The translations under genes were made by a program, and so were the position numbers. The notes beneath the pieces are model-generated. The model searched no databases. It was given only the letters and a program-made list of their open reading frames with translations, and had not been told where the DNA came from. A DNA stretch of 55,930 nt from Clostridia bacterium (GTDB taxonomy: Bacteria; Bacillota; Sulfobacillia; RBS10-35; JADGHG01): positions 1 through 55,930 of the forward strand of contig JADGHG010000001.1 of the NCBI GenBank assembly GCA_019689585.1. The letters run 5' to 3'. Shown in pieces: positions 1,499-52,056 of the stretch. Every line of letters begins with the position of its first letter. Positions within the stretch are counted from its first letter, which is position 1.

Positions 1499-1882
1499 AT
1501 GGACGAGGCGACGGAGGCGCCGGGCGGGTTCCGCATCTCCGAAGAGGTGGTGGCCGCGATCGCCGGGCTCGCCGCCTCCGAGGTGCCGGGCGTGGCCGGC
1601 CTTACGGGCGGCTTCGTCGGCGACATCACGGAGATGCTGGGCAAGCGCTCCTTCGGCCGCGGCGTGCGCGTCGAGCTCGGCACGCGCGAGGCCGCCATCG
1701 ACCTGTCGCTCGTCGTCCAGTACGGCATCTCGATCCCGGCCGTGGCGCAGGCGGTGCAGGAGCGCGTCAAGGCGGCGGTCGAGTCGATGACCGGCCTCGC
1801 GGTCGTCGAGGTGAACGTCCACGTGCGCGGCGTGAGCTTCGAGGGCGCCGAGCCCTCGGGGCGCGAGGTCCGCGTCCGCTGA
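1499..1882 (+). CDS. Asp23/Gls24 family envelope stress (alkaline shock) protein
   Basis: ISEEVVAAIAGLAASEVPGVAGL...GVRVELGTREAAIDLSLVVQYGISIPAVAQAVQERVKAAVESMTGLAVVEVNVHV is the Asp23 family pattern. ATG 1499 is the first in-frame start after the upstream stop. Confidence 0.85.
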   Translation: MDEATEAPGGFRISEEVVAAIAGLAASEVPGVAGLTGGFVGDITEMLGKRSFGRGVRVELGTREAAIDLSLVVQYGISIPAVAQAVQERVKAAVESMTGLAVVEVNVHVRGVSFEGAEPSGREVRVR

Positions 1883-1907
1883 CGCCCGGACGAGGGAGGG
1901 CCGCAGG

Positions 1908-2447
1908 GTGGGCCTCGTCGACCGCGTGATCCTGACGATCTACACCTTTGCGCTCGCCTTCATCTCGCTCCTGAGCGTGCTCCTCTCGCTCGGCTGGGAG
2001 GAGCCCGAGCGCGCCCTGCGCCTCGCCATGACGACCCAGAGCGGCCGGGTCGCCGTCGGCCTCGCCGGACTCGTCTTCTTCGCCGTCAGCGTGCGGCTCC
2101 TCTACTTCGCCTTCCACCGGCCGAACCGCGCGCGCGCCGTCGTGCACCAGGCGGAGCTCGGGGAGGTGCGCGTGAGCCTCGAGGCCGTCGAGAGCCTCAT
2201 CAGCCGGGTGGCCCGCGGGGTGAAGGGCGTGCGCGAGGCGCGTCCGCACGTGCGGCCGGCCGAGGGCGGGCTGGATGTGCGCCTCGTCGCCGCGGTGAGC
2301 CCCGACGTGAACATCCCCGAGCTCTCGCGCCACCTTCAGGAGGAGATCGCGCGCTACGTCCGGAACGTCGTCGGCGTGGCGGTGACGAACGTCGACACGT
2401 TCGTCGAGAACATCACGAGCGAGTCGCGCCGGGCGCGGGTGGAGTAG
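1908..2447 (+). CDS. amaP: alkaline shock response membrane anchor protein AmaP
   Basis: GTG 1908 lies 7 nt after GAGGGAGGG. Two N-terminal TM helices, then an Asp23-like domain (GEVRVSLEAVESLISRVA...VRNVVGVAVTNVDTFVENI). The position after asp23 is canonical. Confidence 0.7.
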   Translation: MGLVDRVILTIYTFALAFISLLSVLLSLGWEEPERALRLAMTTQSGRVAVGLAGLVFFAVSVRLLYFAFHRPNRARAVVHQAELGEVRVSLEAVESLISRVARGVKGVREARPHVRPAEGGLDVRLVAAVSPDVNIPELSRHLQEEIARYVRNVVGVAVTNVDTFVENITSESRRARVE

Positions 2448-2694: not shown

Positions 2695-3135
2695 GTGAGG
2701 CCGTTGGGCGGGGACCCGCCCGTCGACCGGCACAAGGCGCGCGAGATCGCCATGAAGGCGCTCTACCAGCTCGACGTCGGGGGAGGCGACCCCTTCGAAG
2801 CCGTCTCGTACCTCGCCTTGGACGACGGGGCGGCGGAGGCGACGCGCGCCCTGGCCGAGCGCATCGTCGAAGGGGTCATGGCGCATCGCGCCGAGATCGA
2901 CCGGCACATCTCCCTCCGCTCGCGCGACTGGCGGCTCGAGCGCATCGCCCCCGTCGACCGCAACATCCTGCGCATCGCCGTCTGGGAGCTCTGCCACCGG
3001 CCGGACGTGCCGGCCCCGGTCGCCATCGACGAGGCCGTGGAGCTCGCGAAGACGTACGGCGGGCAGGACTCGAGCCGGTTCGTGAACGGGATCCTCGGCC
3101 AGCTGGCGCGCGCGCTCGCGGAGTCGGAGACGTGA
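2695..3135 (+). CDS. nusB: transcription antitermination factor NusB
   Basis: KAREIAMKALYQLDV...RLERIAPVDRNILRIAVWEL...PAPVAIDEAVELAKTYGGQDSSRFVNGILG. TTG 2704 is better spaced from the GGAAGGGGAG SD than GTG 2695, so the start is uncertain by 9 nt. Confidence 0.9.
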   Translation: MRPLGGDPPVDRHKAREIAMKALYQLDVGGGDPFEAVSYLALDDGAAEATRALAERIVEGVMAHRAEIDRHISLRSRDWRLERIAPVDRNILRIAVWELCHRPDVPAPVAIDEAVELAKTYGGQDSSRFVNGILGQLARALAESET

Positions 3136-3989
3136 CGGCGAAGGCGCTTCCCGGCCGACCGGCGGCCGAGGCGGCGCTCGCCGAGGTGCGGGCGCGGCTC
3201 GCGCGCCGGGCCGCCCGGGGGTTCCCTCCGCCTGAGCTCGCGATCGTCTGGGTCGGCGACGACGCGGCGAGCGCCAGCTACATCCGCGCGAAGGAGCGGG
3301 CCGCCCGGGCGCTCGGCGTCGCCTCCCGCCTCGTGCGCCTTCCCGCGACGGCGGGCGAGGCGGAGATCGCGGGCCTCGTCCGTCGGCTGTCCGAGGACCC
3401 GTCCGTCGACGGCGTGCTCGTCCAGGCCCCGCTGCCCGCGGGCGTCGACCTCGAGCGCGTCGTGGCCGCCCTCGACCCGGGCAAGGACGTCGACGGCTTC
3501 CACCCGGAGAACGCCGGGCGGCTCTTCCGGGGCCGCCCGGCCGTCGTGCCCTGCACGCCCCGCGGGATCATGGAGCTTCTGCGGCACTACGGGATCGCGG
3601 TGCGCGGCCGGCGCGCCGTCGTCCTCGGGCGCAGCAACCTCGTCGGCCGGCCGCTCGCCGCGCTGCTCGAGCAGGCGGACGCCACGGTCACCCTCTGTCA
3701 TTCGAAGACGGAGGGTCTGGCGGAGGTCGCGCGCGAGGGCGAGATCCTGGTCGCGGCCGTCGGCCGGCCGGGGTTCGTCACGAGCGGCATGGTGCGCCCG
3801 GGCGCCGTCGTCGTCGACGTCGGCGTGTCGAGGGTGGGAGGCCGGCTCGCGGGCGACGTGGCGGCCGAGGTGGCCGAGGTGGCGGGGGCGCTCACGCCCG
3901 TCCCGGGCGGCGTGGGGCCCATGACGGTCGCCATGCTGATGAGGAACGTCGTCGAGCTCGCCGAGGCGCGACGGGGGGCGACGGCGTGA
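3132..3989 (+). CDS. folD: bifunctional methylenetetrahydrofolate dehydrogenase/cyclohydrolase FolD
   Basis: ASYIRAKERAA, GVLVQAPLP, DVDGFHPENAGRL, PCTPRGIMELL, VVLGRSNLVGRPLA, PVPGGVGPMTVAMLMRN. GTGA overlap with nusB. Confidence 0.95.
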   Translation: MTAKALPGRPAAEAALAEVRARLARRAARGFPPPELAIVWVGDDAASASYIRAKERAARALGVASRLVRLPATAGEAEIAGLVRRLSEDPSVDGVLVQAPLPAGVDLERVVAALDPGKDVDGFHPENAGRLFRGRPAVVPCTPRGIMELLRHYGIAVRGRRAVVLGRSNLVGRPLAALLEQADATVTLCHSKTEGLAEVAREGEILVAAVGRPGFVTSGMVRPGAVVVDVGVSRVGGRLAGDVAAEVAEVAGALTPVPGGVGPMTVAMLMRNVVELAEARRGATA

Positions 3990-5523: not shown

Positions 5524-6470
5524 TCGCCGCGCCCCGGCCGGCGCCCGCCTTCCTCGCGGCCTGCGCCCGCGAAGTCGAACGCGAGCTCCGCCGCCGGGCA
5601 CCCTGGGCGGCGGCCGGTGCACCGGGCGCGGGCGGGGCAGGCGCGGCGGCCTCGGAGTCCCCGGGCTGCCCCGAGCGGCTCGCCGCCGCGATCGAGCTCG
5701 CCCTCTTCGGCGGAGGCAAGCGCGTGCGCCCGGCGATCGTCCTCGGCGCGTGGGAGGCGGCCGGCGGCGCCCCGGGAACGCGGCCCGCCGCCCTCTCGGC
5801 CGCCTGCGCCGTCGAGTGCGTGCACGCGTACTCGCTCGTCCACGACGACCTCCCCGCCATGGACGACGCCGAGCTCCGGCACGGCCGGCCGGCCGTGCAC
5901 CGGGCCTACGGCGAGGCCACGGCCGTGCTGGCGGGCGACGCGCTACAAGCTCTCGCCTTCGAGGTCCTCGCCGCGGCCCCCTGGCCCGATCCGGCGGCGG
6001 GGCTCGCGGCCGTCCGCGCCCTCGCCGAGGCGTGCGGCGCGCGGGGGCTGGTAGGCGGTCAGGAGGACGACCTCCACGCGCGCGGGGCCGATGCGGCCGC
6101 GCTGCTCTCGCTTTACGGCCGCAAGACGGGCGCGCTCTTCCGGGCCTCGGCGCGCCTTGGCGGGCTCGCGGCCGGCGCCGGGCCCGAGGCGCTCGCGGCG
6201 CTCGAGGCGTTCGCCGACGCGTTCGGCCTCGCCTACCAGGCGGTCGACGACGCGCTCGACGTGACGGGCCTACCGGGCGAGACGGGAAAGGACGCCCGGC
6301 GCGACGAGGAGCTCGGCCGGCCGACGCTCGCCTCGCTTCTCGGCGTCGAGGGCGCGCTCGCGCTTGCGCGGCGCAAGGCCGAAGAGGCGGCGGGCGCGCT
6401 TCGGCCCTTCGGCGCGCGCGGCCGCCACCTGCGCCAGCTCGCCGCATGGGCCGTCGCGCGCTCGTCCTGA
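5520..6470 (+). CDS. ispA: polyprenyl (farnesyl/geranylgeranyl) diphosphate synthase
   Basis: The first and second Asp-rich motifs, HAYSLVHDDLPAMDD and GLAYQAVDDALD, are present. GTG 5520 overlaps the xseB stop (GTGA). The longer ORF from 5412 is an upstream frame extension. Confidence 0.85.
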   Translation: MIAAPRPAPAFLAACAREVERELRRRAPWAAAGAPGAGGAGAAASESPGCPERLAAAIELALFGGGKRVRPAIVLGAWEAAGGAPGTRPAALSAACAVECVHAYSLVHDDLPAMDDAELRHGRPAVHRAYGEATAVLAGDALQALAFEVLAAAPWPDPAAGLAAVRALAEACGARGLVGGQEDDLHARGADAAALLSLYGRKTGALFRASARLGGLAAGAGPEALAALEAFADAFGLAYQAVDDALDVTGLPGETGKDARRDEELGRPTLASLLGVEGALALARRKAEEAAGALRPFGARGRHLRQLAAWAVARSS

Positions 6471-6499
6471 ACACGCGGCGGCTCGCTCCGCCAGGCGTC

Positions 6500-6528
6500 T
6501 TGCGCGCAAGGTCGAGATCGCGTACGAT
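6500..6528 (+). promoter_or_regulatory. sigma-A-type promoter, TTGCGC-17 nt-TACGAT
   Basis: -35 at 6500-6505 and -10 at 6523-6528 with exactly 17-nt spacing, 30 nt after the ispA stop. The predicted transcription start is near 6535. Confidence 0.4.
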
Positions 6529-6534
6529 CTATTG

Positions 6535-7175
6535 CCCGCGTGTACCGCGGCCTGACAACCGATCTTGCACGGGTGGCGCAGTATCCTAGTCGCCCGACCG
6601 CGCCTGAAGGCGGGCCTAAAAATCCGTCGAAGGGCACAGCGATGAAGTTCCTGGCGCCGGCTTGCGACGCCCAGTCGCGGGTCGGTGCTGGGAGTTAAGA
6701 GGGCGGGGCGACCCGCAACGGCATGCGGGCGTGGACCCTGCCCTCGCGGAGGCCCGCGCTCTTGGCGCGCCGCCTTCGGGCGGCCGCTAGGACGCGGGGA
6801 CGAACCTGCATGCGGTCGAACCCTGTGTGCAGCGTAGCCTGCCCTGCGTGGGCGCGGTGGAATCCGGGTTCGTGCCGTCGGCGCGGGGCCCAGCGCTGGC
6901 GGCATCTGCCGGGGAAACCGCGCCTGCAAAAAGGGCTAGGGCGCGCGTCCGGGCGCCGGGGAAATCCCCTAGGCTGTTCCCGACCTCAGGGAGTCCGGGC
7001 GGGGATTACGGTGCGCGCTAAGTGGCAATCCAGTCCCGCGCGCGGCGACGGCGCGGCGGCGCCGTAAAGGGAAACCGCCGGGGCGGCGACGCCCCGGAGG
7101 CGCCGGGGAAAGCCTGCTGGACCTGAAGCCGCAATGTTTACCCGTCCGGTGCCACCCGTGCCCACTTTTGCGAGC
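6535..7175 (+). ncRNA. ole: candidate OLE (ornate, large, extremophilic) RNA, about 640 nt; boundaries approximate
   Basis: No credible ORF across 770 nt. Dense GC helices with tetraloops (C(UUCG)G hairpin 6769-6784; CCCGCA/TGCGGG 6712-6729) alternate with A/U-rich islands. It has its own promoter. The ispA-[RNA]-dxs position is the known OLE locus. The sequence was not compared to a covariance model. Confidence 0.55.
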
Positions 7176-7176
7176 C

Positions 7177-7210
7177 TCGGCCCGCGGGAGACGAGAACCC
7201 CGCGGGCCGA
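7177..7210 (+). terminator. 12-bp GC stem-loop without a U-tract (possible 3' end or processing hairpin before dxs)
   Basis: tcGGCCCGCGGG-agacgagaac-CCCGCGGGCCga. It lies 19 nt upstream of the dxs SD (GGAGGA 7229-7234). Confidence 0.3.
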
Positions 7211-7241
7211 CGCGTTACACTGGCCTGCGGAGGATGGGCCG

Positions 7242-9185
7242 ATGGGCTGGCTCGACGCGATCGAAGGCCCGGAGGACATCCGCGGGCTCTCGCCACGGGA
7301 GCTGCGCGAGCTGGCGGACGAGATCCGGGAGACGATCATCGACACCGTCGCCCGAACGGGCGGCCACCTGGGCGCGAGCCTCGGGGTCGTCGAGCTGACA
7401 CTCGCGCTCCACCTCGAGTTCCAGAGCCCCGAGGACAAGATCGTCTGGGACGTCGGCCACCAGGGGTACCCGCACAAGCTCCTCACCGGGCGCAGGCGCG
7501 TCTTCCACACCTTGCGCCAGCCGGGCGGCATCTCGGGGTTTTTGCGCCGCGCGGAGAGCCCCCACGACGCCTGGGAGGCGGGACACGCCTCGACCGCGAT
7601 CTCGGCGGCCGTCGGCTTCGCCAAGGCCCGTGACCTGCGCGGGGAACGGCACCACGTCGTCGCCGTCGTCGGCGACGGGGCGCTCACGGGGGGCCTCGCC
7701 TTCGAGGGGCTCAACAACGCCGGCGCCCTGAAGAGCGACCTGGTCGTCGTCCTCAACGACAACTCGATGTCGATCGCGCCGAACGTCGGGGCGATCCACG
7801 CCTACCTGAGCCGCATCCGCAGCCTCCCGAGCTACCGCAGCCTGCGCGACGAGGTCGAGCGGGCGCTCCGGCACATCCCGCGCGTGGGCCCGCGCGTGGC
7901 GGAAGCCGTCGAGCGCGTGAAGGACAGCCTCAAGTACCTCGTGCTGCCCGGCATGCTCTTCGAGGAGCTCGGCTTCACCTACCTCGGCCCCGTCGACGGG
8001 CATAACATCCAGGCGGTGCGCGAGGCCTTGCGCCAGGCGAAGCGCGTCGGCGGCCCGGTCCTCGTCCACGTCAAGACCCAGAAGGGGCGCGGGTTCGAAC
8101 CGGCCGAGAAGGCCCCCGACGCCGGGCACAGCTTCAAGCCCTTCGACCGGGCGACGGGCCGGCCGCTCGCGAAGCCGGGGCCGCGGCCGCCCGAGTACAC
8201 GAAGGTCTTCGCCGAGACGCTCGTGGCGCTTGGGCGCGACCGGCCCGAGGTCGTCGCCGTCACGGCCGCCATGCCGGACGGGACGGGGACGCAGAGGTTC
8301 AAGGAGGCCTATCCCGACCGCTTCTTCGACGTCGGCATCGCCGAGCAGCACGCGGTCGTCTTCGCCGCCGGGCTCGCGCTCGGAGGGCTGCGCCCCGTCG
8401 TCGCCATCTACTCGACGTTCCTTCAGCGCGCCTACGACCAGCTCGTCCACGACGTCGGCCGCATGAATCTGCCCGTCGTCTTCGCCGTCGACCGCGCCGG
8501 GCTCGTCGGCCAGGACGGCGACAGCCACCAGGGGAGCTTCGACATCGCCTACCTGCGCTCGATCCCGAACTTCGTCGTCATGCAGCCGAAGGACGAGGAC
8601 GAGCTCCGCCACATGCTGCGCACGGCGATCGAGTACCGCGGAGGGCCTGTCGCCATCCGCTACCCGCGCGGCGAAGGGGTGGGCGTGCCGCTTTCGGGCG
8701 AGCCGGAGCTCCTGCCCATCGGTCGGGCCGAGCTCCTGCGGGCGGGCGAGGACGTCGCCATCCTGGCCCTCGGCCCGGCCGCGTACCGGGCTTTGGCGGC
8801 GGCCGAGGCGCTCGCCCAGGACGGCGTCTCGGCGAGGGTCGTGAACGCCCGCTTCGCCAAGCCGCTCGACCGCGAGGCCGTCCTGGCCGCGGCCGAGCTC
8901 GGCGCCCTCGTGACGGTCGAGGACGGGACGCGGCTCGGCGGCTTCGGATCGGCCGTGCTCGAGCTCCTCGCCTCCGAGGGCCGCCTCGTGCCGACGGCCG
9001 TCCTCGGCTACCCCGACCGTTTCATCGAGCACGGCGAGCCGGCCGCCCAGCTCGCCTCCTTCGGGCTCGACGCGGACGGCATCGCCCGGGCCGCCCGGAG
9101 CGTGCTCGCCGAGGCCCGCAGCCGGCGTTCGGCCGAGGTCTCGGCGGCCGCCCGCGACGGCCAGGGCGGCCCGGGCGCGGCGTGA
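7242..9185 (+). CDS. dxs: 1-deoxy-D-xylulose-5-phosphate synthase
   Basis: MGWLDAIEGPEDIRGLSPRELRELADEIR, GHLGASLGVVELTLALH, WDVGHQGYPHK, VVGDGALTGG, FDVGIAEQHAV. ATG 7242 has the SD 7 nt upstream. The 36 codons before it in the ORF track are a frame extension. Confidence 0.95.
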   Translation: MGWLDAIEGPEDIRGLSPRELRELADEIRETIIDTVARTGGHLGASLGVVELTLALHLEFQSPEDKIVWDVGHQGYPHKLLTGRRRVFHTLRQPGGISGFLRRAESPHDAWEAGHASTAISAAVGFAKARDLRGERHHVVAVVGDGALTGGLAFEGLNNAGALKSDLVVVLNDNSMSIAPNVGAIHAYLSRIRSLPSYRSLRDEVERALRHIPRVGPRVAEAVERVKDSLKYLVLPGMLFEELGFTYLGPVDGHNIQAVREALRQAKRVGGPVLVHVKTQKGRGFEPAEKAPDAGHSFKPFDRATGRPLAKPGPRPPEYTKVFAETLVALGRDRPEVVAVTAAMPDGTGTQRFKEAYPDRFFDVGIAEQHAVVFAAGLALGGLRPVVAIYSTFLQRAYDQLVHDVGRMNLPVVFAVDRAGLVGQDGDSHQGSFDIAYLRSIPNFVVMQPKDEDELRHMLRTAIEYRGGPVAIRYPRGEGVGVPLSGEPELLPIGRAELLRAGEDVAILALGPAAYRALAAAEALAQDGVSARVVNARFAKPLDREAVLAAAELGALVTVEDGTRLGGFGSAVLELLASEGRLVPTAVLGYPDRFIEHGEPAAQLASFGLDADGIARAARSVLAEARSRRSAEVSAAARDGQGGPGAA

Positions 9186-10078: not shown

Positions 10079-10107
10079 TATATTAGGCCTGAACAAACGA
10101 TTGTTTG
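10079..10107 (+). promoter_or_regulatory. -10-like TATATT (10079-10084) followed by inverted repeat CAAACGATTGTTTG (10094-10107), a candidate TetR/PaaR operator
   Basis: This is the only AT-rich patch in the tlyA-TetR gap. The repeat arms are CAAAC/GTTTG. It overlaps the TTG start of the TetR gene. Confidence 0.4.
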
Positions 10108-10770
10108 GATCCTGGGCGGGAGGCGGTCGCGATCGCAAGCCTGGGCGAAGCCGTCGAGCGCGCGGGCTCGAAGGGGGCGCTCCGCCCGAGCCGGAGGCGC
10201 GACGACGTCCTCCGCGCGGCCCGTCGCGTCTTCAGCCAGAAGGGCTACCACGGCGCCTCGATGCGCGACCTCGGCGAGGCCGTCGGGCTCCGCCGGGGGA
10301 GCCTCTACGCCCATATCGCCAGCAAGGCCGAGCTCCTCTTCGAGGTGATCGACGCCGGCGCGGACGAGTTCCTGCGCGCGCTCGCGCCGATCGCCGCCTC
10401 CCCGCGGCCGGCGGCGGAGCGGCTGCGGCAGGCCTTCCGCGCGCACGCCGAGGTCGTCGCCGGCCACAGCGAGGCGGCGACCGTGTTCTTTCACGAGTGG
10501 CGCTTCCTCGCGGGCGAGGCGCGCGCCCTTATCCTCGCGAAGCGCGACCGCTACGAGGCCCTCTGGCGGTCGATCGTCGAGGACGGCATGGCCGCGGGCG
10601 AGTTCCGCCCGGGCGACGCGCGGCTTGTGACGATCTGGCTCCTTTCGGCGGCCAACTGGCTCTACCAGTGGTTCCGCCCGGACGGGCCGCTCTCGGCGGC
10701 GGCGGTCGCAGACGCGTTTGCGGACCTGGCGCTTTCGGGGCTCGCCGGGCGAGGACCGGGGGAAGCGTGA
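10105..10770 (+). CDS. TetR/AcrR family transcriptional regulator (PaaR-like by context)
   Basis: HTH region LRAARRVFSQKGYHGASMRDLGEAVGLRRGSLYAHIASKAELLFEV. TTG 10105 is the only canonical in-frame start. paaA follows 14 nt downstream. Confidence 0.85.
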   Translation: MDPGREAVAIASLGEAVERAGSKGALRPSRRRDDVLRAARRVFSQKGYHGASMRDLGEAVGLRRGSLYAHIASKAELLFEVIDAGADEFLRALAPIAASPRPAAERLRQAFRAHAEVVAGHSEAATVFFHEWRFLAGEARALILAKRDRYEALWRSIVEDGMAAGEFRPGDARLVTIWLLSAANWLYQWFRPDGPLSAAAVADAFADLALSGLAGRGPGEA

Positions 10771-10784
10771 AGGAGGTCGGGAGG

Positions 10785-11744
10785 ATGGCGCAGACGGAGG
10801 TCGAGAGGACGGAGGCCGAGGACCCGCGGCTTCGCGAGTTCGAAGCGCGCATCGAGCGGGGCGAGAAGATCGAGGCCGACGACTGGATGCCCGAGGAGTA
10901 CCGCCGGCAGTGCTTGAGGCTCATCCTCACGCACGCCAACTCCGAGATCATGGGCGCCCTGCCCGAGGGCGAGTGGATCACGCGCGCGCCCACGCTCCAC
11001 CGCAAGCTCGCCGTGCTCGCGAAGGTGCAGGACGAGATCGGCCACGCCCAGCTCATCTACCGCGTGGCGGAGGACCTGGCCCAGCCGTACGGGAAGACGC
11101 GCGAGGACTTCATCGAGGACCTCGTCGCCGGGCGCGCCAAGTTCCACAACGTCTTCTCGTACCCGGCGCCGACCTGGGCCGACGTCGGCGTGATCGCCTG
11201 GCTCGTCGACGGGGCGGCGCTCGTCACCCAGAGCTCGCTCCTCGAGACGAGCTACGGCCCCTACGCGCGCATCCTGAAGCGGATCTGCGCCGAGGAGGCG
11301 ATCCACCTGAAGCACGGCGAGGACATCGTCCTGACGCTCGCCGGCGGGACCGAGGCCCAGCGGGCCATGCTTCAGGGCGCGCTCGACCGCTGGTGGAGGC
11401 CGCTCCTCCACTTCTTCGGACCGCCGGACGAGGTGAGCCCGAACACGGCGCGGGCGATGCGCTGGCGGATCCGGCTCAAGTCGAACGAGGAGATGCGCCA
11501 GCAGTTCCTGTCCCGCTACGTCCCGAAGATCTGGGGCATGGGCTTCACCGTCCCCGACCCCGGGTTGCGGCGCGACGAGGCGACCGGCCGCTGGGAGTAC
11601 AGCGACCCGGACTGGGACGAGTTCTGGCGCGTCGTGAAAGGCGACGGGCCCCTCACCGCGAAGCGGCTCGCGCTCCGCAGGCTGAGCCACGAAGAGGGCC
11701 GCTGGGTGCGCGAGGCGCTCGCGCGGCCGAAGGCGGCGGCGTAA
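10785..11744 (+). CDS. paaA: 1,2-phenylacetyl-CoA epoxidase catalytic subunit PaaA
   Basis: MAQTEV..EADDWMPEEYRRQCLRLILTHANSEIMGALPEGEW, with di-iron ligand motifs QDEIGHAQL and AEEAIHLKHG. ATG 10785 follows AGGAGG. Confidence 0.9.
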   Translation: MAQTEVERTEAEDPRLREFEARIERGEKIEADDWMPEEYRRQCLRLILTHANSEIMGALPEGEWITRAPTLHRKLAVLAKVQDEIGHAQLIYRVAEDLAQPYGKTREDFIEDLVAGRAKFHNVFSYPAPTWADVGVIAWLVDGAALVTQSSLLETSYGPYARILKRICAEEAIHLKHGEDIVLTLAGGTEAQRAMLQGALDRWWRPLLHFFGPPDEVSPNTARAMRWRIRLKSNEEMRQQFLSRYVPKIWGMGFTVPDPGLRRDEATGRWEYSDPDWDEFWRVVKGDGPLTAKRLALRRLSHEEGRWVREALARPKAAA

Positions 11745-11755
11745 GGGGGCGGCAC

Positions 11756-12079
11756 GTGCTCGAGGTCTACGAGGTGTTCGGCCAGAAGGCGTCGGGCGAG
11801 CCGCATATGCACGTCGGCAGCGTGCTCGCCGGCGACCGCGAGCTGGCGTACGTCCTCGCGAAGGAGTGCTTCGCCCGGCGCGAGGAGTACGTGAGCCTCT
11901 GGGTGGTGGCCCGCCGGCACGTGCGGAAGACGAGCCCCGAGGACGCGCAGATGATCCCGCACACGACGGACCGGCGCTACCGGCTCGGCGAGGGCTACCG
12001 CATCTCGGTCGAGCGGTGGCGGGCATTGCAGGCGCGGCGCCGCGCCGAGGCGGCCGCGAGGGATGGTGCGGAGCCGTGA
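11756..12079 (+). CDS. paaB: 1,2-phenylacetyl-CoA epoxidase subunit PaaB
   Basis: VLEVYEVFGQKASGEPHMHVGSVLAGDRELAYVLAKECFARREEYVSLWVV. GTG 11756 lies 6 nt after AAGGGGG. Confidence 0.9.
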   Translation: MLEVYEVFGQKASGEPHMHVGSVLAGDRELAYVLAKECFARREEYVSLWVVARRHVRKTSPEDAQMIPHTTDRRYRLGEGYRISVERWRALQARRRAEAAARDGAEP

Positions 12080-12891
12080 CGGGGCGCGGAGGCCCGCTGC
12101 GCCACGTCCTCCTCTCGCTCGCCGACGACGAGCTCGTCCTCGGCCACCGGGACTCGGAGTGGACGGCCTTCGCGCCCTTCATCGAGGAGGATGTCGCCCT
12201 CGCCTCGATCGCCCAGGACGAGCTGAGCCACGCCGCGGTCTACCTCCGCCTCCTCGCCGAGGCGGAGCCGGATGCGCCCGAGGACGAGCGCGACCCGGAC
12301 CGGCTCACCTTCCTGCGGGGGCCCGAGGCGTTCCGCAACGCCCGCCTCCTCGAGCGGCCGAACGGCGACTGGGCCTACACCTGCGTGCGGCATCTGGCCT
12401 ACGACCTGTTCGACGACCTGAGGCTCAAGGCGCTCGCGCGGTCGGGGTACCGGCCGCTCGCCGAGGCGGTCGACCGCCTCGCGCGCGAGGAGCGGTACCA
12501 TCTCGTCCACGGGCGCACTTGGCTCGCCAGGCTCGGCGAAGCCGAGGGCGAGGCGCGCGAGCGGCTCGCCCTGGCCGTCGGCGCCGTGATGGCGGACGCG
12601 CCGGGGCTCTTCGAGGAGTCGCCCGAAGACGAGCTCGCCGTCGCGGCGGGGATCGTGCCGGCGGGCCCGGCTGCCCTCGCGGCGCCGTGGGCCGAGGCGA
12701 TGCGGGCCGAGCTCGCGCCGATCGGGCTCGCCGACCGCGTGCCGCCGCCCGAGACGCTCGTCCGCGACGCGCGGGGGGACGGGCCCAAGGGGCCGCTGGG
12801 CGGCCGGCGAGGCCGGCACACCGACGACCTCTCCGCTCTCCTTTCCGCCCTGGGGGAGGTGTACCGAAGTGATCCCCGAGCCAGCTGGTGA
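12076..12891 (+). CDS. paaC: 1,2-phenylacetyl-CoA epoxidase subunit PaaC
   Basis: LLSLADDELVLGHRDSEW, IAQDELSHAAVY, LAREERYHLVHGRTW. GTGA overlap with paaB. Confidence 0.85.
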   Translation: MTGRGGPLRHVLLSLADDELVLGHRDSEWTAFAPFIEEDVALASIAQDELSHAAVYLRLLAEAEPDAPEDERDPDRLTFLRGPEAFRNARLLERPNGDWAYTCVRHLAYDLFDDLRLKALARSGYRPLAEAVDRLAREERYHLVHGRTWLARLGEAEGEARERLALAVGAVMADAPGLFEESPEDELAVAAGIVPAGPAALAAPWAEAMRAELAPIGLADRVPPPETLVRDARGDGPKGPLGGRRGRHTDDLSALLSALGEVYRSDPRASW

Positions 12892-13363
12892 AGGGCTCGT
12901 CGAGCGCGTCCGCGAGGCGCTCGCGACCGTGCACGATCCCGAGATCCCGAGCGTCAGCATCGTCGACCTCGGCCTCGTCGAGACGGTGCGGGCGGACGAG
13001 GCGGGGCGCGTCGAGGTCGAGCTCCTTCCGACCTTCACCGGCTGTCCGGCGCTCGACATCATCGCCCTCGAGGCGGAGCGGGCCGTCCGCGCCACGCCGG
13101 GCGTCCGCTCGGCCGAGGTGCGCTTCGTGCTCCACCCGGCCTGGACGACCGACCGCATCAGCCCGGAAGGCCGGAGGCGGCTCCGCGAGTTCGGCATCGC
13201 GCCGCCGGCGCCTTCCGCCGCCCGGCCCGCCCCCGACGTCGCCTGTCCCTTCTGCGGGTCGAAGGACACGGTCGTCGAGAGCGCCTTCGGGCCCACCCGC
13301 TGCCGCTCGATCTACTACTGCCGCGCCTGCCGGAACCCGTTCGAGAAGATCAAGGAAGTCTGA
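12869..13363 (+). CDS. paaD: phenylacetate-CoA oxygenase subunit PaaD (DUF59 plus C-terminal zinc ribbon)
   Basis: VHDPEIPSVSIVDLGLV, LPTFTGCPALD, CPFCGS..YYCRACRNPFE. GTG 12869 lies 7 nt after GGGGGAGGTG. Confidence 0.85.
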   Translation: MIPEPAGEGLVERVREALATVHDPEIPSVSIVDLGLVETVRADEAGRVEVELLPTFTGCPALDIIALEAERAVRATPGVRSAEVRFVLHPAWTTDRISPEGRRRLREFGIAPPAPSAARPAPDVACPFCGSKDTVVESAFGPTRCRSIYYCRACRNPFEKIKEV

Positions 13364-13776
13364 TGCGCAACCCGGTCCCCGTCGGAACGGAGGCCGAGGT
13401 CCGCTTCGAGGTCCGCCCCGGCATGGAGGCGGCCTTCGACGGGCGCGTCGTCCACCGGGTCCTCGCCACCTGGTGGCTCGTGCACTACATGGAGTACGCG
13501 GCCCGTCGCGTCCTCGAGCCGTACCTCGCCGAGGACGAGGAGGGGGCGGGCGTCGGGATCAACGTGCGCCACCTGGGCCCGGCGCCCGTCGGGGAACGCG
13601 TGCGGGTCGTGGCCCGCGCGACGCAGATGGAGGGCCAGAAGCTCGTCTGCTCCGTCTTCGCCGAGTGCAGCCGGGGGCCGGTCGGCGAGGGCGTCGTCTA
13701 CCAGGCCGTCTGGCCGAAGGGAGCCCTCGCCGAGCGGATGGCCGGGCGCGCCTCCGGCCGCTCCTCCCAGGCCTGA
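13363..13776 (+). CDS. hotdog-fold thioesterase (COG5496-like)
   Basis: VLATWWLVHYMEYAARRVLEPYLAEDEEGAGVGINVRHLGPAPVGERVRV. The ATG overlaps the paaD stop (TGATG), with an AAGGAAG SD. Confidence 0.7.
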   Translation: MRNPVPVGTEAEVRFEVRPGMEAAFDGRVVHRVLATWWLVHYMEYAARRVLEPYLAEDEEGAGVGINVRHLGPAPVGERVRVVARATQMEGQKLVCSVFAECSRGPVGEGVVYQAVWPKGALAERMAGRASGRSSQA

Positions 13777-14945
13777 GGCGCCGCCGGGTCCCAGATCCGC
13801 CCGGCGACCACGACGCGCTCGATCTCGAGCTCCGGGGAGACGACGAGAAGGTCGGCGTCCGCGCCCGGCTCGATCGCGCCCTTGCGCGGGAGGCCGAGGA
13901 TGCGGGCCGGGTTGCGCGTCGCGAAGGCGAGCGCCGTCGCGAGGGGGAGGCCCGCCCGGACGGCTTTCTGCAGGCTCTCCCAGAGCACCCGGAGCGAGCC
14001 GACGCCGACCTCGACGACCCGGCCCGCGGCGTCGAAGACCGGCAGGCTGCCGTTGCCGTCCGAGCTCAGCGTGAGCCGCGCCGGGTCCACGCCCTCGCGC
14101 AGGAGGAGGGGCAGCGCCTCCTCCGGGGGCACGGCCTCGGGTTCGCCGAGCTCCGGCCGGCAGGCGGCCGTGACGTCGAGGGGGGCCCCTTCGCGCGCGA
14201 ACGCCGCCGCCTCGTGGAGGAGCGGCCGCCGGCGGTTGACGTGCGTCGGGTAGAACTGGGCGGCGGGCAGGTCGCTCGCCGCCACGGCGGCCCGCAGGCG
14301 TCGGAGGCCGGAGGGGGCGTCTCCCACGTGAAGGTGGAGGAGTCCCGGCTTCCCGGCGAGGAGCCCGCCGATGCGGGCGCGCGCCGCGAGGCGCACGACG
14401 TCGGCCGGGTCGGCCTGGGACGCGCGGGCGTCGGCGATGGCCACCTCGCCGACGCCGACCACCTCGCCGACGAGCGCGATGTCGCGCTCGACGTCGCCCG
14501 TGATCGTCGCGGGCGGGATCTGGTAGGAGCCCGTGTAGATCCAGGCCGCGACCCCTTCCGCGGCGAGCGCCCTGGCCTTCGCGAGGAGCGAGGCCAGAGA
14601 GCGCATCACCCCGTCGAAGCCGAGAAGCCCCACGACCGTCGTCACACCGGCGGAGAGGAGCGCCGTCGCCGTCACCTCGGGTGCGCGCGTCGCGGGTCCG
14701 CCCTCGCCCCCGCCGCCCAGGATGTGGACGTGGCCGTCGACGAGGCCCGGGAGGACGTAGCGTCCGCGGGCGTCGACGACCTCGCAGGCGAACGGGGGCG
14801 GCGGCTGGGCGAGGTCCGGGCCGAGGGCGGCGATCCGCCCGAAGACGCAGAGGATGTCGACCCGGCCGAGCGGCTCGGGGGCGAACACGGTCCCCCCTCG
14901 CACGAGGAGGCAGGGGACGCCGCGGGCGGCGCGAAGGTCGGCCAC
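13698..14945 (-). CDS. iadA: beta-aspartyl/isoaspartyl dipeptidase
   Basis: Amidohydrolase signature [52 protein letters not shown] start. The 3' end overlaps the converging thioesterase gene by 79 nt. Confidence 0.85.
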
Positions 14946-14949
14946 GACG

Positions 14950-14979
14950 CTAACATGCCCCGCCGCCTCGCGGTATCAT
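14950..14979 (+). promoter_or_regulatory. possible sigma-A promoter for icd (CTAACA-18 nt-TATCAT)
   Basis: Located in the divergent iadA/icd gap. The -10, TATCAT, is at 14974-14979. The -35 matches 4 of 6 positions. Confidence 0.25.
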
Positions 14980-15030
14980 GGGCGCCGGACCGGCGGGGGA
15001 GCCCCGGCCGGAAGGCGAGGAGGATGGCGC

Positions 15031-16272
15031 TTGGCGTACCGTCCCGAGCCGCCCGCCGACGGGCGGCCCATCGAGTACCGCGAGGGCAGGCTCGTCGTCC
15101 CCGACCGGCCGATCGTGCCCTTCATCGAGGGGGACGGGACGGGGCCCGACATCTGGCGCGCTGCGCGGCGCGTGCTCGACGCGGCCGTGGAACGGGCTTA
15201 CGGCGGGGCGCGCCGCATCGCCTGGATGGAGGTGCTCGCCGGCGAGAAGGCGTACCGGACGGTCGGGAGCTGGCTGCCGGACGAGACGCTTTCGGCCATC
15301 CGGACCTTTCGCGTCGCCATCAAGGGACCGCTCACGACGCCCGTCGGGGGCGGCATCCGCAGCCTCAACGTCGCCCTCCGCCAGGAACTCGACCTCTACG
15401 CCTGCATCCGGCCCGTGCGCTGGTTCCCGGGCGTGCCGTCGCCCGTCCGTCACCCGGAGCGGCTCGACGTCGTCATCTTCCGCGAGAACACCGAGGACAT
15501 CTACGCCGGCATCGAGTGGGCGGCCGGAAGCGCCGAGGCGGAGGAGCTGGCCGGCATCCTGAAGGAGCGCTTCGGCCGCGAGGTGCGCCCGGGCAGTGCC
15601 CTCGGCGTGAAGCCGATGAGCGCCTTCGGCTCCAAGCGGCTTGTGCGCATGGCGATCCGCTATGCGCTCGAGCGGGGCCGCCCGAGCGTGACGCTCGTGC
15701 ACAAGGGGAACATCATGAAGTTCACCGAGGGCGCCTTCCGCGCCTGGGGCTACGAGGTGGCCCGGGAGGAGTTCGGCGACCGCACCATCACCTGGGAGGA
15801 GGTCCAGGCGGCGGGCGGCCGCGCGCCCGAGGGTCGCCTCCTCGTCAAGGACGAGATCTGCGACGCCATGTTCCAGAAGCTCCTTTTGCGGCCCGAGGAC
15901 TACAGCGTCATCGCCACGCCGAACCTGAACGGCGACTACCTCTCCGACGCGGCCGCGGCGCAGGTCGGCGGCATCGGCATGGCGCCGGGGGCGAACGTCG
16001 GCGACGGGTACGCCGTCTTCGAGGCCACGCACGGGACGGCGCCGAAGTACGCGAACCAGGACAAGGTGAACCCGGGAAGCCTCATCCTTTCGGGCGTCAT
16101 GCTCCTCGAGCACCTCGGCTGGCAGGAGCCGGCCGACCGGATCGTGCGCGCCGTGGAGGAGACGATCCAGGCCGGGGTCGTCACCTACGACCTGGCGCGC
16201 CTCATGACGGGGGCGCGCGAGGTGCGGACGAGCGAGTTCGCCGACGCCGTCGTCGCGCGGCTCCGAGCCTGA
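15031..16272 (+). CDS. icd: NADP-dependent isocitrate dehydrogenase
   Basis: [89 protein letters not shown] 15031 lies 6 nt after GAGGAGGA. The ATG at 15024 is out of frame. Confidence 0.9.
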
Positions 16273-16355
16273 CGCGGCGGAGGAATCGCCCCCGCCGGCT
16301 CGAACCTGGCAGTACGCCCGGCTTCCTCTCGGCGCGGAGGGAAGGGGAGTCCCCC

Positions 16356-17198
16356 GTGCGCGTCGCCGTGCTCGCGAACGCCGACAAGAAGGACGCGCTC
16401 GCGCTCGCTGGGGAGCTCGCGCGTTGGCTGCGCGCGCGGGGGGACGAGGCTGTCACCTGGCCCGAGCTCGGGCCCGTTCTCCCCGGCGTCCGCGCCGAGC
16501 CGCCCGATGCTTGGGGCGACACGGCGCTCTGCGTGGTGCTCGGCGGCGACGGCACTCTCCTACAGGCCGGGCGGCGCCTCGCCCCCTTCGGCGTGCCGCT
16601 TCTCGGCGTCAACCTCGGCCATATCGGCTTCCTCACGGAGCTCGAAGGGGACGAGCTCTTCGACCGGCTTCCCGACTACCTCGAGGGGCGGGCCGAAGCC
16701 GAGGAGCGGACGCTCCTCTCCGTCGAGAGCCCGAGCCTCGGCCGCGCGAGGCTCGCCTTCAACGACGCGGTCGTAAGCCGCGTGCCGTTTTCGCGCCTGC
16801 TCCGCATCGAGATCGAGGCGGACGGCCAGCCCTTCTCGCGCTACCAGGCGGACGGCCTGATCGTCGCCACCCCGACCGGCTCGACCGCCTACTCGCTCGC
16901 CGCGGGCGGCCCGATCGTGGAGCCGGGGCTGGCCGCGATGGTCGTCACGCCGATCTGCGCGTACAACGTGGGCGCGCGGTCGATCGTCGTCCCCGCCTCG
17001 CGCACGCTCACGGTGCGCGAGACCTCGGGCGACCGCGACGTCGTCCTGACCCTCGACGGGCAGGAGTCGACGCGCCTTTCCGACGGCGAGCCCGTCGCGA
17101 TCGCCGTCTCGCCGCTCAGGGTGCGGCTTCTGCGTTCCCCCGGGTGGAACTTTTACGCGGTCCTGCGCGAGAAGCTCTACGAGGCGTCGGCGGGATGA
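16356..17198 (+). CDS. nadK: NAD kinase
   Basis: CVVLGGDGTLL, GVNLGHIGFL, NDAVV, DGLIVATPTGSTAYSLAAGGPIV. GTG 16356 follows GGAGGGAAGGGGAG. It forms the 3' end of a 1436-aa artefactual ORF. Confidence 0.9.
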   Translation: MRVAVLANADKKDALALAGELARWLRARGDEAVTWPELGPVLPGVRAEPPDAWGDTALCVVLGGDGTLLQAGRRLAPFGVPLLGVNLGHIGFLTELEGDELFDRLPDYLEGRAEAEERTLLSVESPSLGRARLAFNDAVVSRVPFSRLLRIEIEADGQPFSRYQADGLIVATPTGSTAYSLAAGGPIVEPGLAAMVVTPICAYNVGARSIVVPASRTLTVRETSGDRDVVLTLDGQESTRLSDGEPVAIAVSPLRVRLLRSPGWNFYAVLREKLYEASAG

Positions 17199-37387: not shown

Positions 37388-37851
37388 GCGAGCACCCGAT
37401 CCAAGGCCTCATGCAGACGGCGATGGAGAGCCTGAAGAGCATGGTCGACGTCAACACGGTCGTCGGCGACGCCGTCGAGACGAAGACAGGCGCCGTCATC
37501 ATCCCCGTCTCGCGCGTCTCCTTCGGCTTCGCCGCCGGGGGCAGCCAGTGGCCGGGCGGCGGGCGCGAGAACCTCCCCTTCGGGGGCGGCAGCGGCGCCG
37601 GCATCTCCGTCCAGCCGGTCGGCTTCCTCGTCGTGAGCCCCGACCACGTTCGGCTTCTGCCGGTCGGCGACCGCGGCGCCCTCGAACGGCTCGTCGACAT
37701 GACGCCCGAGGTCCTCGACCGGCTGCAGGGCGTCTTCGGGACGACGCGCGCAGCCGATGGGCCGAGGCCGCGGCCGCGCCCGGGCGACGGCCCCACGTAC
37801 CCGACGGACGAGCCGGAGCTCGCGCGGGCCGACGTCCCGCGCGGCGGCTGA
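37384..37851 (+). CDS. ytfJ: GerW/YtfJ family sporulation protein
   Basis: VVGDAVETKTGAVIIPVSRVSFGFAAGG and GGGSGAGISVQPVGFLVV. Confidence 0.85.
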   Translation: MSEHPIQGLMQTAMESLKSMVDVNTVVGDAVETKTGAVIIPVSRVSFGFAAGGSQWPGGGRENLPFGGGSGAGISVQPVGFLVVSPDHVRLLPVGDRGALERLVDMTPEVLDRLQGVFGTTRAADGPRPRPRPGDGPTYPTDEPELARADVPRGG

Positions 37852-37852
37852 C

Positions 37853-38650
37853 GTGCGCGTCCTCTGGAAGGGCGCCGTCAGCTTCGGCCTCGTCCACATC
37901 CCCATCCGGCTCGGGCCGGCGACGGTCGACCGCGCCGTGCGCTTCCGGCAGCTCCACGCGAGAGACCACACGCCGATCCGCTACCGCAAGGAGTGCCCGG
38001 CCTGCGGCGAGACGGTCGGAGACGACGAGATCGTCCGCGGCTTCGAGTTCTCCCCGGGCGAGTTCGTCGTCGTCCGGGACGAGGACCTGGAACGGCTGCC
38101 GCTCCCGACGCGCCGCACGATCGAGGTCCTGGACTTCGTGCGCCAGGACGAGGTCGACCCGATCTACTACGAGCGGCCGTACCGCCTCGAGCCGGCGGAG
38201 GGCGGGGAGCGGCCCTACGCCCTCCTTGTGCGCACGCTCGAGCGGACGGGCAAGGTCGGCCTCTCCCGGCTCGCGCTCCGCCAAAGGGAGCGGCTCGGGC
38301 TCCTCCGGGTCTACCGCGGCTTTCTCCTCCTCGAGACGCTCCACCGGCCGGAGGACCTCCTGGCGGCCGAGGCGGGGGAGGCGCGGGCCCAGCTCCCCGA
38401 ACCCGACCCGCGCGAGCTCGAGGTGGCGGAGGAGCTCGTATCGCGGCTCTCGGTACCGTTCGACCCGAGCCGCTACCGGGACCGGTACCAGGCCGCGCTC
38501 CGCGAGCTCGTCGAGCAGAAGGTCAGCGGGCGGGAGATCGTCCTGCCCGCTCCCGTCGAGGAGGCGCCGCCCCAGGACCTCCTCGCCGCCTTGCGCGAGA
38601 GCGTGCGGCGCATCGAGGAAGGCCGAGCCCTGGCCGGACGGACGGGGTGA
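37853..38650 (+). CDS. ku: NHEJ DNA end-binding protein Ku
   Basis: LWKGAVSFGLVHIPIRL, IEVLDFV..VDPIYYERPY. GTG 37853 lies 1 nt after the ytfJ stop. Confidence 0.95.
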   Translation: MRVLWKGAVSFGLVHIPIRLGPATVDRAVRFRQLHARDHTPIRYRKECPACGETVGDDEIVRGFEFSPGEFVVVRDEDLERLPLPTRRTIEVLDFVRQDEVDPIYYERPYRLEPAEGGERPYALLVRTLERTGKVGLSRLALRQRERLGLLRVYRGFLLLETLHRPEDLLAAEAGEARAQLPEPDPRELEVAEELVSRLSVPFDPSRYRDRYQAALRELVEQKVSGREIVLPAPVEEAPPQDLLAALRESVRRIEEGRALAGRTG

Positions 38651-50775: not shown

Positions 50776-52056
50776 GTGGACGGCTCGTTCGCCGACCCGC
50801 CCCGTCGGTCCGGGGCGCTGTCACGGCTTGTGCGCGCCCTCGTCCCGGGCGTCGTCGCCTTCGGCTTCGTCGCCTCTTCCGTCGCGAGCGCGTCCCCCTA
50901 CTCGTGGGAGGACGACCGCCCCAAAGGGCTCGGCTTCCCCGTGGCCGCGCCGGCCGAGCCCGCGCCCGGGGCGCCCGGGGAGGCGCCGGCCGCCGCGAAG
51001 GAGCCTCCGCCCCGCGTCACGGCCGACGCCTACGTCCTCATGGATCTCGCCAGCGGCCGCGTGCTCGCCCAGCGTAACGCGCACGAGAGGCGGGCCCCCG
51101 CCAGCACCACGAAGATCATGACGGCCGTCCTGGCGTTCGAGCTCGGCCGGCCCGACGACGTCGTGGTCGTGAGCCCGGCCGCGGCTGCCACCCCGGGCTC
51201 GTCCGCGCACCTCCGGCCCGGTGACCGCTACCGCCTGCGGGACCTCGTGCTGGCGCTCCTCCTGCGCTCGGGAAACGACGCCGCCGTCGCGATCGCCCAG
51301 CACCTCGCGGGGAGCGTCTCCGCCTTCGCCGGGCTCATGAACGACGAAGCGCGTCTTCTCGGCCTGCGCGACACGCGCTTTCAGAACCCCCACGGCCTCA
51401 CCGCCCCGGGTCACTACACGAGCGCCTACGACCTCGCCCGGCTGGCCCGGTATGCCATGGCGTTCCCGGAGTTCCGCGCGGCCGTCGCGAGGAGCGAGGC
51501 CGAGATCCGCGGCCAGGACGCGGGCGGGCGCGAGATCGTGCGCCGCCTCCGGAACACGAACCGGCTCCTCGCCTACGGCTGGGTGACGGGCGTGAAGACG
51601 GGGACGACGGCGGCCGCCGGGGACTGCCTCGTCGCCTCGGGCGAGAGGGAGGGGGAGTCGCTCGTGGCCGTCGTGCTGCACAGCGACGACCGCTGGTCCG
51701 ACGCCCTCGCGCTTCTCGACTGGGGCTTCCGCGAGTTCGAGGAGCGGACGCTCGCGACGGTCGACGCGCCGGTCGCGCGGCTACCGGTCGTCGGCGGGAC
51801 GCGGGCGGCCGTCGCGGTGCGGCCGGCTGCCGACCTGCGCCTGGCCGTGAGCCGCCTCGAAGCCCCCGAGGTGCGCGTGAGCCTCGAGCTCCCGGCGCGC
51901 GTCGAGGCGCCCGTGGCAGCCGGCGCCTACCTCGGGCGGCTCGTCGCCTGGGCGGGCTCCGAGCGGCTCGGGGACGTGCCGCTCGTCGCGGGCGAGACGG
52001 TCGCCCGGGGCCGCATCCTGCGCCTCTTCCGGCCGCGGCCGGCCGCCTTCCCCTGA
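50776..52056 (+). CDS. D-alanyl-D-alanine carboxypeptidase (S11), third paralog
   Basis: ASTTKIMT (SxxK), SGNDAA (SxN), KTGTTAAAG (KTG). GTG start. Confidence 0.85.
   Translation: MDGSFADPPRRSGALSRLVRALVPGVVAFGFVASSVASASPYSWEDDRPKGLGFPVAAPAEPAPGAPGEAPAAAKEPPPRVTADAYVLMDLASGRVLAQRNAHERRAPASTTKIMTAVLAFELGRPDDVVVVSPAAAATPGSSAHLRPGDRYRLRDLVLALLLRSGNDAAVAIAQHLAGSVSAFAGLMNDEARLLGLRDTRFQNPHGLTAPGHYTSAYDLARLARYAMAFPEFRAAVARSEAEIRGQDAGGREIVRRLRNTNRLLAYGWVTGVKTGTTAAAGDCLVASGEREGESLVAVVLHSDDRWSDALALLDWGFREFEERTLATVDAPVARLPVVGGTRAAVAVRPAADLRLAVSRLEAPEVRVSLELPARVEAPVAAGAYLGRLVAWAGSERLGDVPLVAGETVARGRILRLFRPRPAAFP

Follow-up and report, generated by a model that had tools for sequence, protein, structure and literature searches.

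Between ispA and dxs, in a stretch of 55,930 nt of bacterial DNA analysed as a whole (the window), lies an RNA gene that, as judged by its model match and by covariation among homologues, is a genuine full-length OLE RNA (positions 6557-7171) on which selection is ongoing, and the gene of its membrane-protein partner OapA, usually located directly downstream, is not beside it. OLE, the ornate, large, extremophilic RNA, is a known bacterial family. In the species studied, it forms a membrane-associated complex with OapA, OapB, OapC and bS21 and helps the cell to withstand alcohol, cold, too much Mg2+ and growth on poor carbon sources; to our knowledge, no biochemical function has yet been established for it. 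Among its partners, OapA alone is considered indispensable, mainly on account of the side-by-side position of the two genes. In every RNA-level feature tested, the window element is an OLE, and it departs from the family solely in lacking an adjacent oapA.

The gap that holds the RNA measures 771 nt, from the stop codon of ispA (6468-6470) to the ATG of dxs at 7242. These limits and the GGAGGA of dxs at 7229-7234, given previously by a sequence-only reading of the window, were confirmed from the sequence, and Pfam assigned the two flanking genes to polyprenyl_synt and DXP_synthase_N (402 bits), respectively. A scan of the whole window with Rfam at gathering thresholds returned a single match, OLE (RF01071), located on the forward strand of the gap, with 408.2 bits (gathering score 50) and an E-value of 1.6e-116. 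The architecture is full length (model positions 1-616 of 616 across 615 nt) and, with the model structure mapped onto the window, 146 of the 157 model pairs (93%) are canonical. The identification is routine, since OLE is the label that this RNA would receive in any annotation based on Rfam. It bears out what the sequence-only reading had put forward as a candidate, by the very covariance model named there as a check, and renders superfluous its fallback of an unclassified structured RNA. Two hairpins singled out in that reading, CCCGCA/TGCGGG at 6712-6729 and a UUCG-capped stem at ~6768-6785, were both found and are model helices of OLE; the A/U-rich islands, likewise all found, are signature single-stranded motifs of OLE in the Rfam alignment. 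The very high GC content attributed to the host is seen in the 75% GC of the window, within which the OLE itself has 71%. The features of the locus and the comparable loci in other genomes are listed in Table 1.

Table 1. Features of the ispA-dxs gap in the window and OLE loci of relatives and metagenome contigs
Feature or locus	Position or accession	Strand	Description
Candidate promoter TTGCGC-17-TACGAT	6500..6528	+	Weak
OLE RNA gene, full length	6557..7171	+	RF01071 match, canonical pairs, covariation among 27 homologues
P1, 5' strand (GGGUGG)	6571..6576	+	Pairs with CCACCC; from alignment; covaries
P1, 3' strand (CCACCC)	7152..7157	+	From alignment; covaries
Conserved 5' domain	6578..6647	+	GCAGUAUCCUAGUC, CGGGCCUAAAAAUCCG hairpin, GGGCACAGCGAUGAAGUUCC; columns invariant or nearly invariant
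P13-type hairpin (OapB site)	~7025..7045	+	GCGA loop and bulged C; <<<<<-<<<____>>>>>>>> over CCGCG-C-GCG-GCGA-CGGCGCGG (Rfam alignment)
P14.1-type hairpin	~7063..7084	+	GCGA tetraloop (Rfam alignment)
GC-rich hairpin past OLE	7178..7210	+	CGGCCCGCGGG...CCCGCGGGCCG, no U tract; at the site of the canonical intrinsic terminators of L082 and L084
dxs ribosome-binding site (GGAGGA) and ATG start	7229..7244	+	70 nt past OLE end
L081	GCA_019683875.1		OLE-dxs, no oapA; OLE 475 bits, full length
L082	GCA_018729555.1		OLE-dxs, no oapA; OLE 477 bits, full length
L084	GCA_029960865.1		OLE-dxs, no oapA; contig starts inside OLE, downstream side read
L083 (Thermaerobacter subterraneus)			ispA-OLE-oapA-dxs; OLE 448 bits; Dxs 63%
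L085	GCA_020723785.1		ispA-OLE-oapA-dxs; Dxs 65%
L086	GCA_029960955.1		ispA-OLE-oapA-dxs; Dxs 62%
L096, OLE	2768-3364	-	470 bits, full length; dxs directly after
L093, OLE	1802-2403	+	461 bits, full length; dxs directly after

By homology, the window RNA would fold into the conserved multi-helix architecture of the family. The outermost helix, P1, is absent from the Rfam structure line and was added by hand from the alignment; across 27 sequences, it is 92.6% paired, with both sides changed in four of its six pairs. The conserved 5' domain that follows corresponds to the region in which the OapA sites have been mapped, in or near P2 and P4a (PMC12265935), and it also contributes one side of the OapC site, a k-turn built from the joining regions that flank P5 (PMC9723947). 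The k-turn nucleotides (GAUGAAG ... CUGGGAGUUAAG) are invariant or nearly so and are present in the window, at the level of sequence only. The OapB site consists of a GNRA tetraloop plus a single-nucleotide bulge in P13 (PMC7936274), and both features, here a GCGA loop and a bulged C, are found in the window OLE according to the Rfam alignment; a further hairpin is of the P14.1 type, which serves as the secondary OapB site in Halalkalibacterium halodurans (PMC7936274). When the 5' domain (P1 to the junction before P5) is compared within the clade of oapA-less loci described below, its identity amounts to 91-94% versus 79-82% for the rest of the RNA.

Covariation was analysed in an alignment of 27 OLE sequences using the Rfam structure plus P1. 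In this alignment, 85.9% of cells are paired versus 42-46% in slid controls, both sides have changed in 113 of 163 pairs, and none of 500 shuffles reached any of the observed measures; the fold is thus supported by the comparison with relatives that had been proposed from the sequence. Among three oapA-less OLEs, each pairwise comparison yields 14-24 compensatory double changes and few breaks, and the pairing fractions of the oapA-less OLEs (0.88-0.93) rank among the highest. In 24 OLEs with an adjacent oapA, which served as the reference, conservation reaches 90% or more in 241 alignment columns. The window OLE matches the signature nucleotide in 235 of these columns and mismatches in 6, compared with 3 mismatches in L081, 7 in L082 and 1-18 in the 24 reference OLEs.

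The absence of oapA was assessed with a profile of the protein. A Dxs-based genome scan, in which the relatives listed were at most 60% identical, gave at least 80 loci, with OLE in at least 22 of them. Each of the 22 OLE loci listed contains an ORF of 179-212 aa between OLE and dxs and, since the DVxGD and TVGGKAxGK motifs are conserved in these ORFs, they represent OapA. The profile was built from 21 of the proteins, leaving aside the ORF of L013, which is apparently frameshifted; the 22 loci also supplied sequences for the OLE alignment. Run with all filters off against every six-frame fragment of at least 30 aa from the 55.9-kb window, the profile gave no match (best E-value 2.8); the stretch devoid of oapA runs from ~6.5 kb upstream of OLE to ~48.7 kb downstream and contains no remnant of the gene. 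The earlier observation that no OapA-like gene lies between the RNA and dxs therefore holds and extends to all six frames of the window. Where an adjacent oapA would be expected, the 70 nt that separate the end of OLE from dxs leave no space for one. Pfam and NCBIfam scans of the window genes, every multi-transmembrane protein included, detected no CNNM-like protein; the multi-transmembrane proteins were also considered as a hidden OapA and rejected, being SpoIIM, Lgt, M50 peptidase, ABC permease, SpoVAC, UPF0182, AmaP and DUF2273. An adjacent oapA often accompanies OLE but is not among the properties of the RNA as such.

In the protein collection, the best match to the Dxs of the window is 73% identical, followed by matches of 67, 66 and 65% and by Thermaerobacter at 63%. 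The three closest relatives (L081, L082 and L084, with Dxs 66-74% identical) have the same layout, OLE being followed directly by dxs after ~70 nt with no oapA, and the OapA profile found no match within ~10 kb of OLE in either direction in L081 and L082, nor on the downstream side in L084. Their OLEs are 79-82% identical to that of the window, and L082 and L084 also share with it a TetR-paaABCD insert after tlyA. They are nevertheless different organisms, as Dxs identity indicates, with a lower GC content (64-72%); moreover, in L082 and L084 the OLE is followed by a canonical terminator with a U tract, and dxs is preceded by a TATGAT -10 box. By Dxs identity (62-65%), L083, L085 and L086 are the nearest lineages outside this oapA-less clade. 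They have the same flanking genes as the window, and their OLEs are GC-rich in the same style, with 72-74% nucleotide identity to that of the window, but they carry a gene for an OapA of 172-222 aa between OLE and dxs, which the window lacks. OapA is likewise kept between OLE and dxs in Symbiobacterium. Since the outgroups keep oapA while the closest relatives are without it, the adjacency was lost at the base of one clade and its absence is no assembly artefact.

A scan of metagenomes with a GC-rich OLE motif yielded two further loci of this layout, L096 and L093, both on JGI metagenome contigs on which the OapA profile found no match. In L096, dxs starts ~20 nt past OLE, with no terminator, and transcription would be expected to continue from OLE into dxs. 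Because the Dxs proteins of L096 and L093 are just 55% identical to that of the window, their oapA-less layout looks independent, and on this comparison it appears that the layout arose more than once. In another GC-rich relative, L089 (Logan contig, 1-1256), OLE and oapA are followed directly by tlyA and dxs is missing from its usual place. The OLE locus rearranges in related lineages, as seen in L089, L096 and L093.

The genes around OLE in the window are canonical, with nusB-folD-xseA-xseB-ispA upstream and dxs-tlyA downstream (Pfam assignments), tlyA encoding a TlyA-type S4/FtsJ methyltransferase. The gene order proposed by the sequence-only reading stands up to this point, but its direct continuation from tlyA to nadK had to be abandoned, because a TetR-paaABCD-thioesterase-dehydrogenase block intervenes (10.1-16.3 kb). 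This block, at 10105-16272, comprises TetR, paaA/B/C/D (phenylacetyl-CoA oxygenase components), a FlK-type thioesterase and an isocitrate/isopropylmalate dehydrogenase, and within it, on the opposite strand, lies an amidohydrolase (13698-14945). It is the same in L082, extends as TetR-paaABCD-FlK to the contig end in L084, is absent in L083 and is represented in L086 by the dehydrogenase only; being present in L082 and L084 and not in L083, it marks the oapA-less clade. Just upstream of nusB (1499-2678), asp23, amaP (which encodes the alkaline shock membrane anchor) and the gene of a small DUF2273 membrane protein form a trio that is kept in L081-L083, L087 and L097, with asp23 only in L086; since it also occurs outside the oapA-less clade, it is not clade-specific. 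Further downstream are a Ku-domain protein (37757-38650) and, at 51781-55730 on the reverse strand, an RNase-H-like protein adjoining a DEAD/MZB helicase as an MrfA-type pair, which suggests that DNA-repair modules lie downstream of the OLE operon. Owing to the high GC content, many long ORFs are spurious, for example that at 12888-17198 (1436 aa) and several antisense frames. The sporulation genes of the window (spoIIIAG/AH, spoIIM, spoVAC, spoIIAA/AB, spoIVB and spo0A) identify the host as a Bacillota spore former. Typical OLE hosts in this phylum are extremophiles or anaerobes, a lifestyle that is presumed for this one. Its lineage, with 75% GC in the window, is uncultured and related to Thermaerobacter, which supplies its nearest named relatives by Dxs.

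As regards transcription, the sigma-A promoter that had been proposed at 6500-6528 did not hold up as such. The sequence exists, but it agrees with the consensus at 7 of 12 positions, a promoter scan of 6300-7400 reported no sigma-70-like site, and the element does not align in position with the clearer -10 boxes found upstream of OLE in relatives (TGCTATAAT in L082 and L086). OLE transcripts of H. halodurans arise from a proximal promoter as well as by co-transcription with neighbouring genes (PMC3413148), and either route is possible for the window OLE, whose transcription would begin at a local promoter of low strength or continue from the ispA operon. The transcript would end at the GC-rich hairpin located past OLE. 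At the same site, the terminators of L082 and L084 consist of a GGCCGCC...GGCGGC stem followed by U8, and beyond them lie a TATGAT -10 box and GGAGG for dxs. The fold of the 82-nt OLE-dxs spacer of the window (7160-7241) has a free energy of -49.9 kcal/mol (z -5.2). In its outer helix, the 3' tail of OLE (GCCCACUUUUGCG) pairs with the Shine-Dalgarno region of dxs (UGCGGAGGAUGGGC); as modelled, this helix could block access to the ribosome-binding site of dxs in transcripts that extend beyond OLE.

Compared with the OLEs of H. halodurans and Clostridium, the window RNA has the same helices, the same signature single-stranded motifs and the same position between ispA and dxs. It shares with the studied OLEs the GNRA/bulge (OapB) features, the nucleotides of the putative OapC k-turn and a spore-forming Bacillota host, whereas it differs from them by its 71% GC content and by having no oapA, no recognisable proximal promoter and no U tract in the post-OLE hairpin. 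A departure from the canonical ribonucleoprotein set-up is also known for the variant 1 and variant 2 OLEs of the TANB77 and RF39 gut lineages, in which P7-P9 are shortened or missing and OapB and OapC are absent while OapA is kept (PMC11332333); in contrast, the window RNA is full length and what is missing is the linkage to oapA.

Other readings of the gap have to be weighed against these data. It could be taken for a cis-regulatory leader of dxs or for the hiding place of a frameshifted protein gene, given the stable outer helix that can join the OLE 3' tail to the dxs Shine-Dalgarno region and the ORFs of 114 and 64 aa that the gap contains; yet the OLE model accounts for the entire gap save two short spacers, a terminator separates OLE from dxs in L082 and L084, and the six-frame OapA search was negative. 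As to the ORFs, GC by codon position is flat in both, 0.70/0.76/0.77 for that at 6723-7067 and 0.71/0.72/0.74 for that at 6827-7021, compared with 0.76/0.48/0.96 in dxs, the pattern of a genuine gene. The gap is therefore non-coding, in agreement with the earlier claim that it has no credible ORF; protein-coding readings are ruled out by this measure, and the leader or frameshift reading as a whole is extremely improbable. That the element is an OLE relic decaying after the deletion of oapA is also very improbable. Such decay would fit the missing oapA and a bit score of 408 that falls below the 448-477 of relatives, but the full model is covered, with a share of canonical pairs equal to or higher than that of OLEs with an adjacent oapA, and, of the six conserved columns that differ, two (374 and 471) are the two sides of one compensatory change. 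Furthermore, the 14-24 compensatory changes occurred in a clade whose Dxs proteins remain 66-74% identical to that of the window, and the spacers flanking OLE have diverged far more than OLE itself. Since the conserved columns, the pairing, the compensatory changes, the 5' domain, the OapB features and the nucleotides of the OapC k-turn are all kept, decay is discarded.

There remains the question of the missing partner. It is probable, in our view, that the OLE is functional and that oapA is encoded at an unlinked genomic site, the lineage having lost the adjacency and not the partnership. OapA is most likely still encoded elsewhere because, in this lineage, the 5' domain to which it binds is better conserved than any other part of the RNA; oapA would then sit at an unlinked place in the genome with the OLE-OapA partnership kept. 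In a survey of the family, OLE and OapA were found to be almost completely mutually inclusive, the exceptions being explained by failures of detection, by assemblies that are incomplete or by OLE genes that are defective (PMC11332333). An OLE that has lost OapA altogether and works with OapB, OapC, bS21 or a substitute such as a CNNM/MpfA-type transporter is unlikely: it runs against the survey, where OLE was apparently defective when OapA was missing (PMC11332333), whereas the OLE here is intact and the domain binding OapA is its most conserved part, and the window encodes no CNNM-domain protein. What speaks for such a loss is that oapA is found neither in the 55.9-kb window nor in the flanks read in L081, L082 and L084, that the RNA is clearly under continuing selection and that a second lineage has the same layout, together with the outcome of OapA homologue searches (word-prefiltered, best 120 matches), in which, among the matches listed, none was attributable to the sister MAGs (MBX547..., MBT925... 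and MDI3269... blocks) or to the name of the organism. However, the inspection covered a small part of each genome and the homologue searches were non-exhaustive; being word-prefiltered, listing the best 120 matches and having missed known OapAs (for example those of L085 and L086 in the first search), these searches are weak evidence either way. It is quite unlikely that the GC-rich, Thermaerobacter-related spore formers keep an intact OLE under purifying selection despite a total loss of OapA, as a second, distant lineage may also do.

In at least four genomes of one clade and in one independent lineage, OLE is fully conserved and oapA is not its neighbour, and this clade-level unlinking of ole and oapA, with its apparent recurrence, suggests a modest but concrete lead for the family. 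If, in line with the reading preferred here, oapA has merely moved, co-transcription of ole and oapA would be dispensable. If OapA has truly been lost, it would not be universally indispensable, and OLE would work through some other membrane anchor or unanchored; the organisms would then amount to natural knock-outs of OapA with a continuing need for OLE, in which the core function of the RNA would be separated from OapA.
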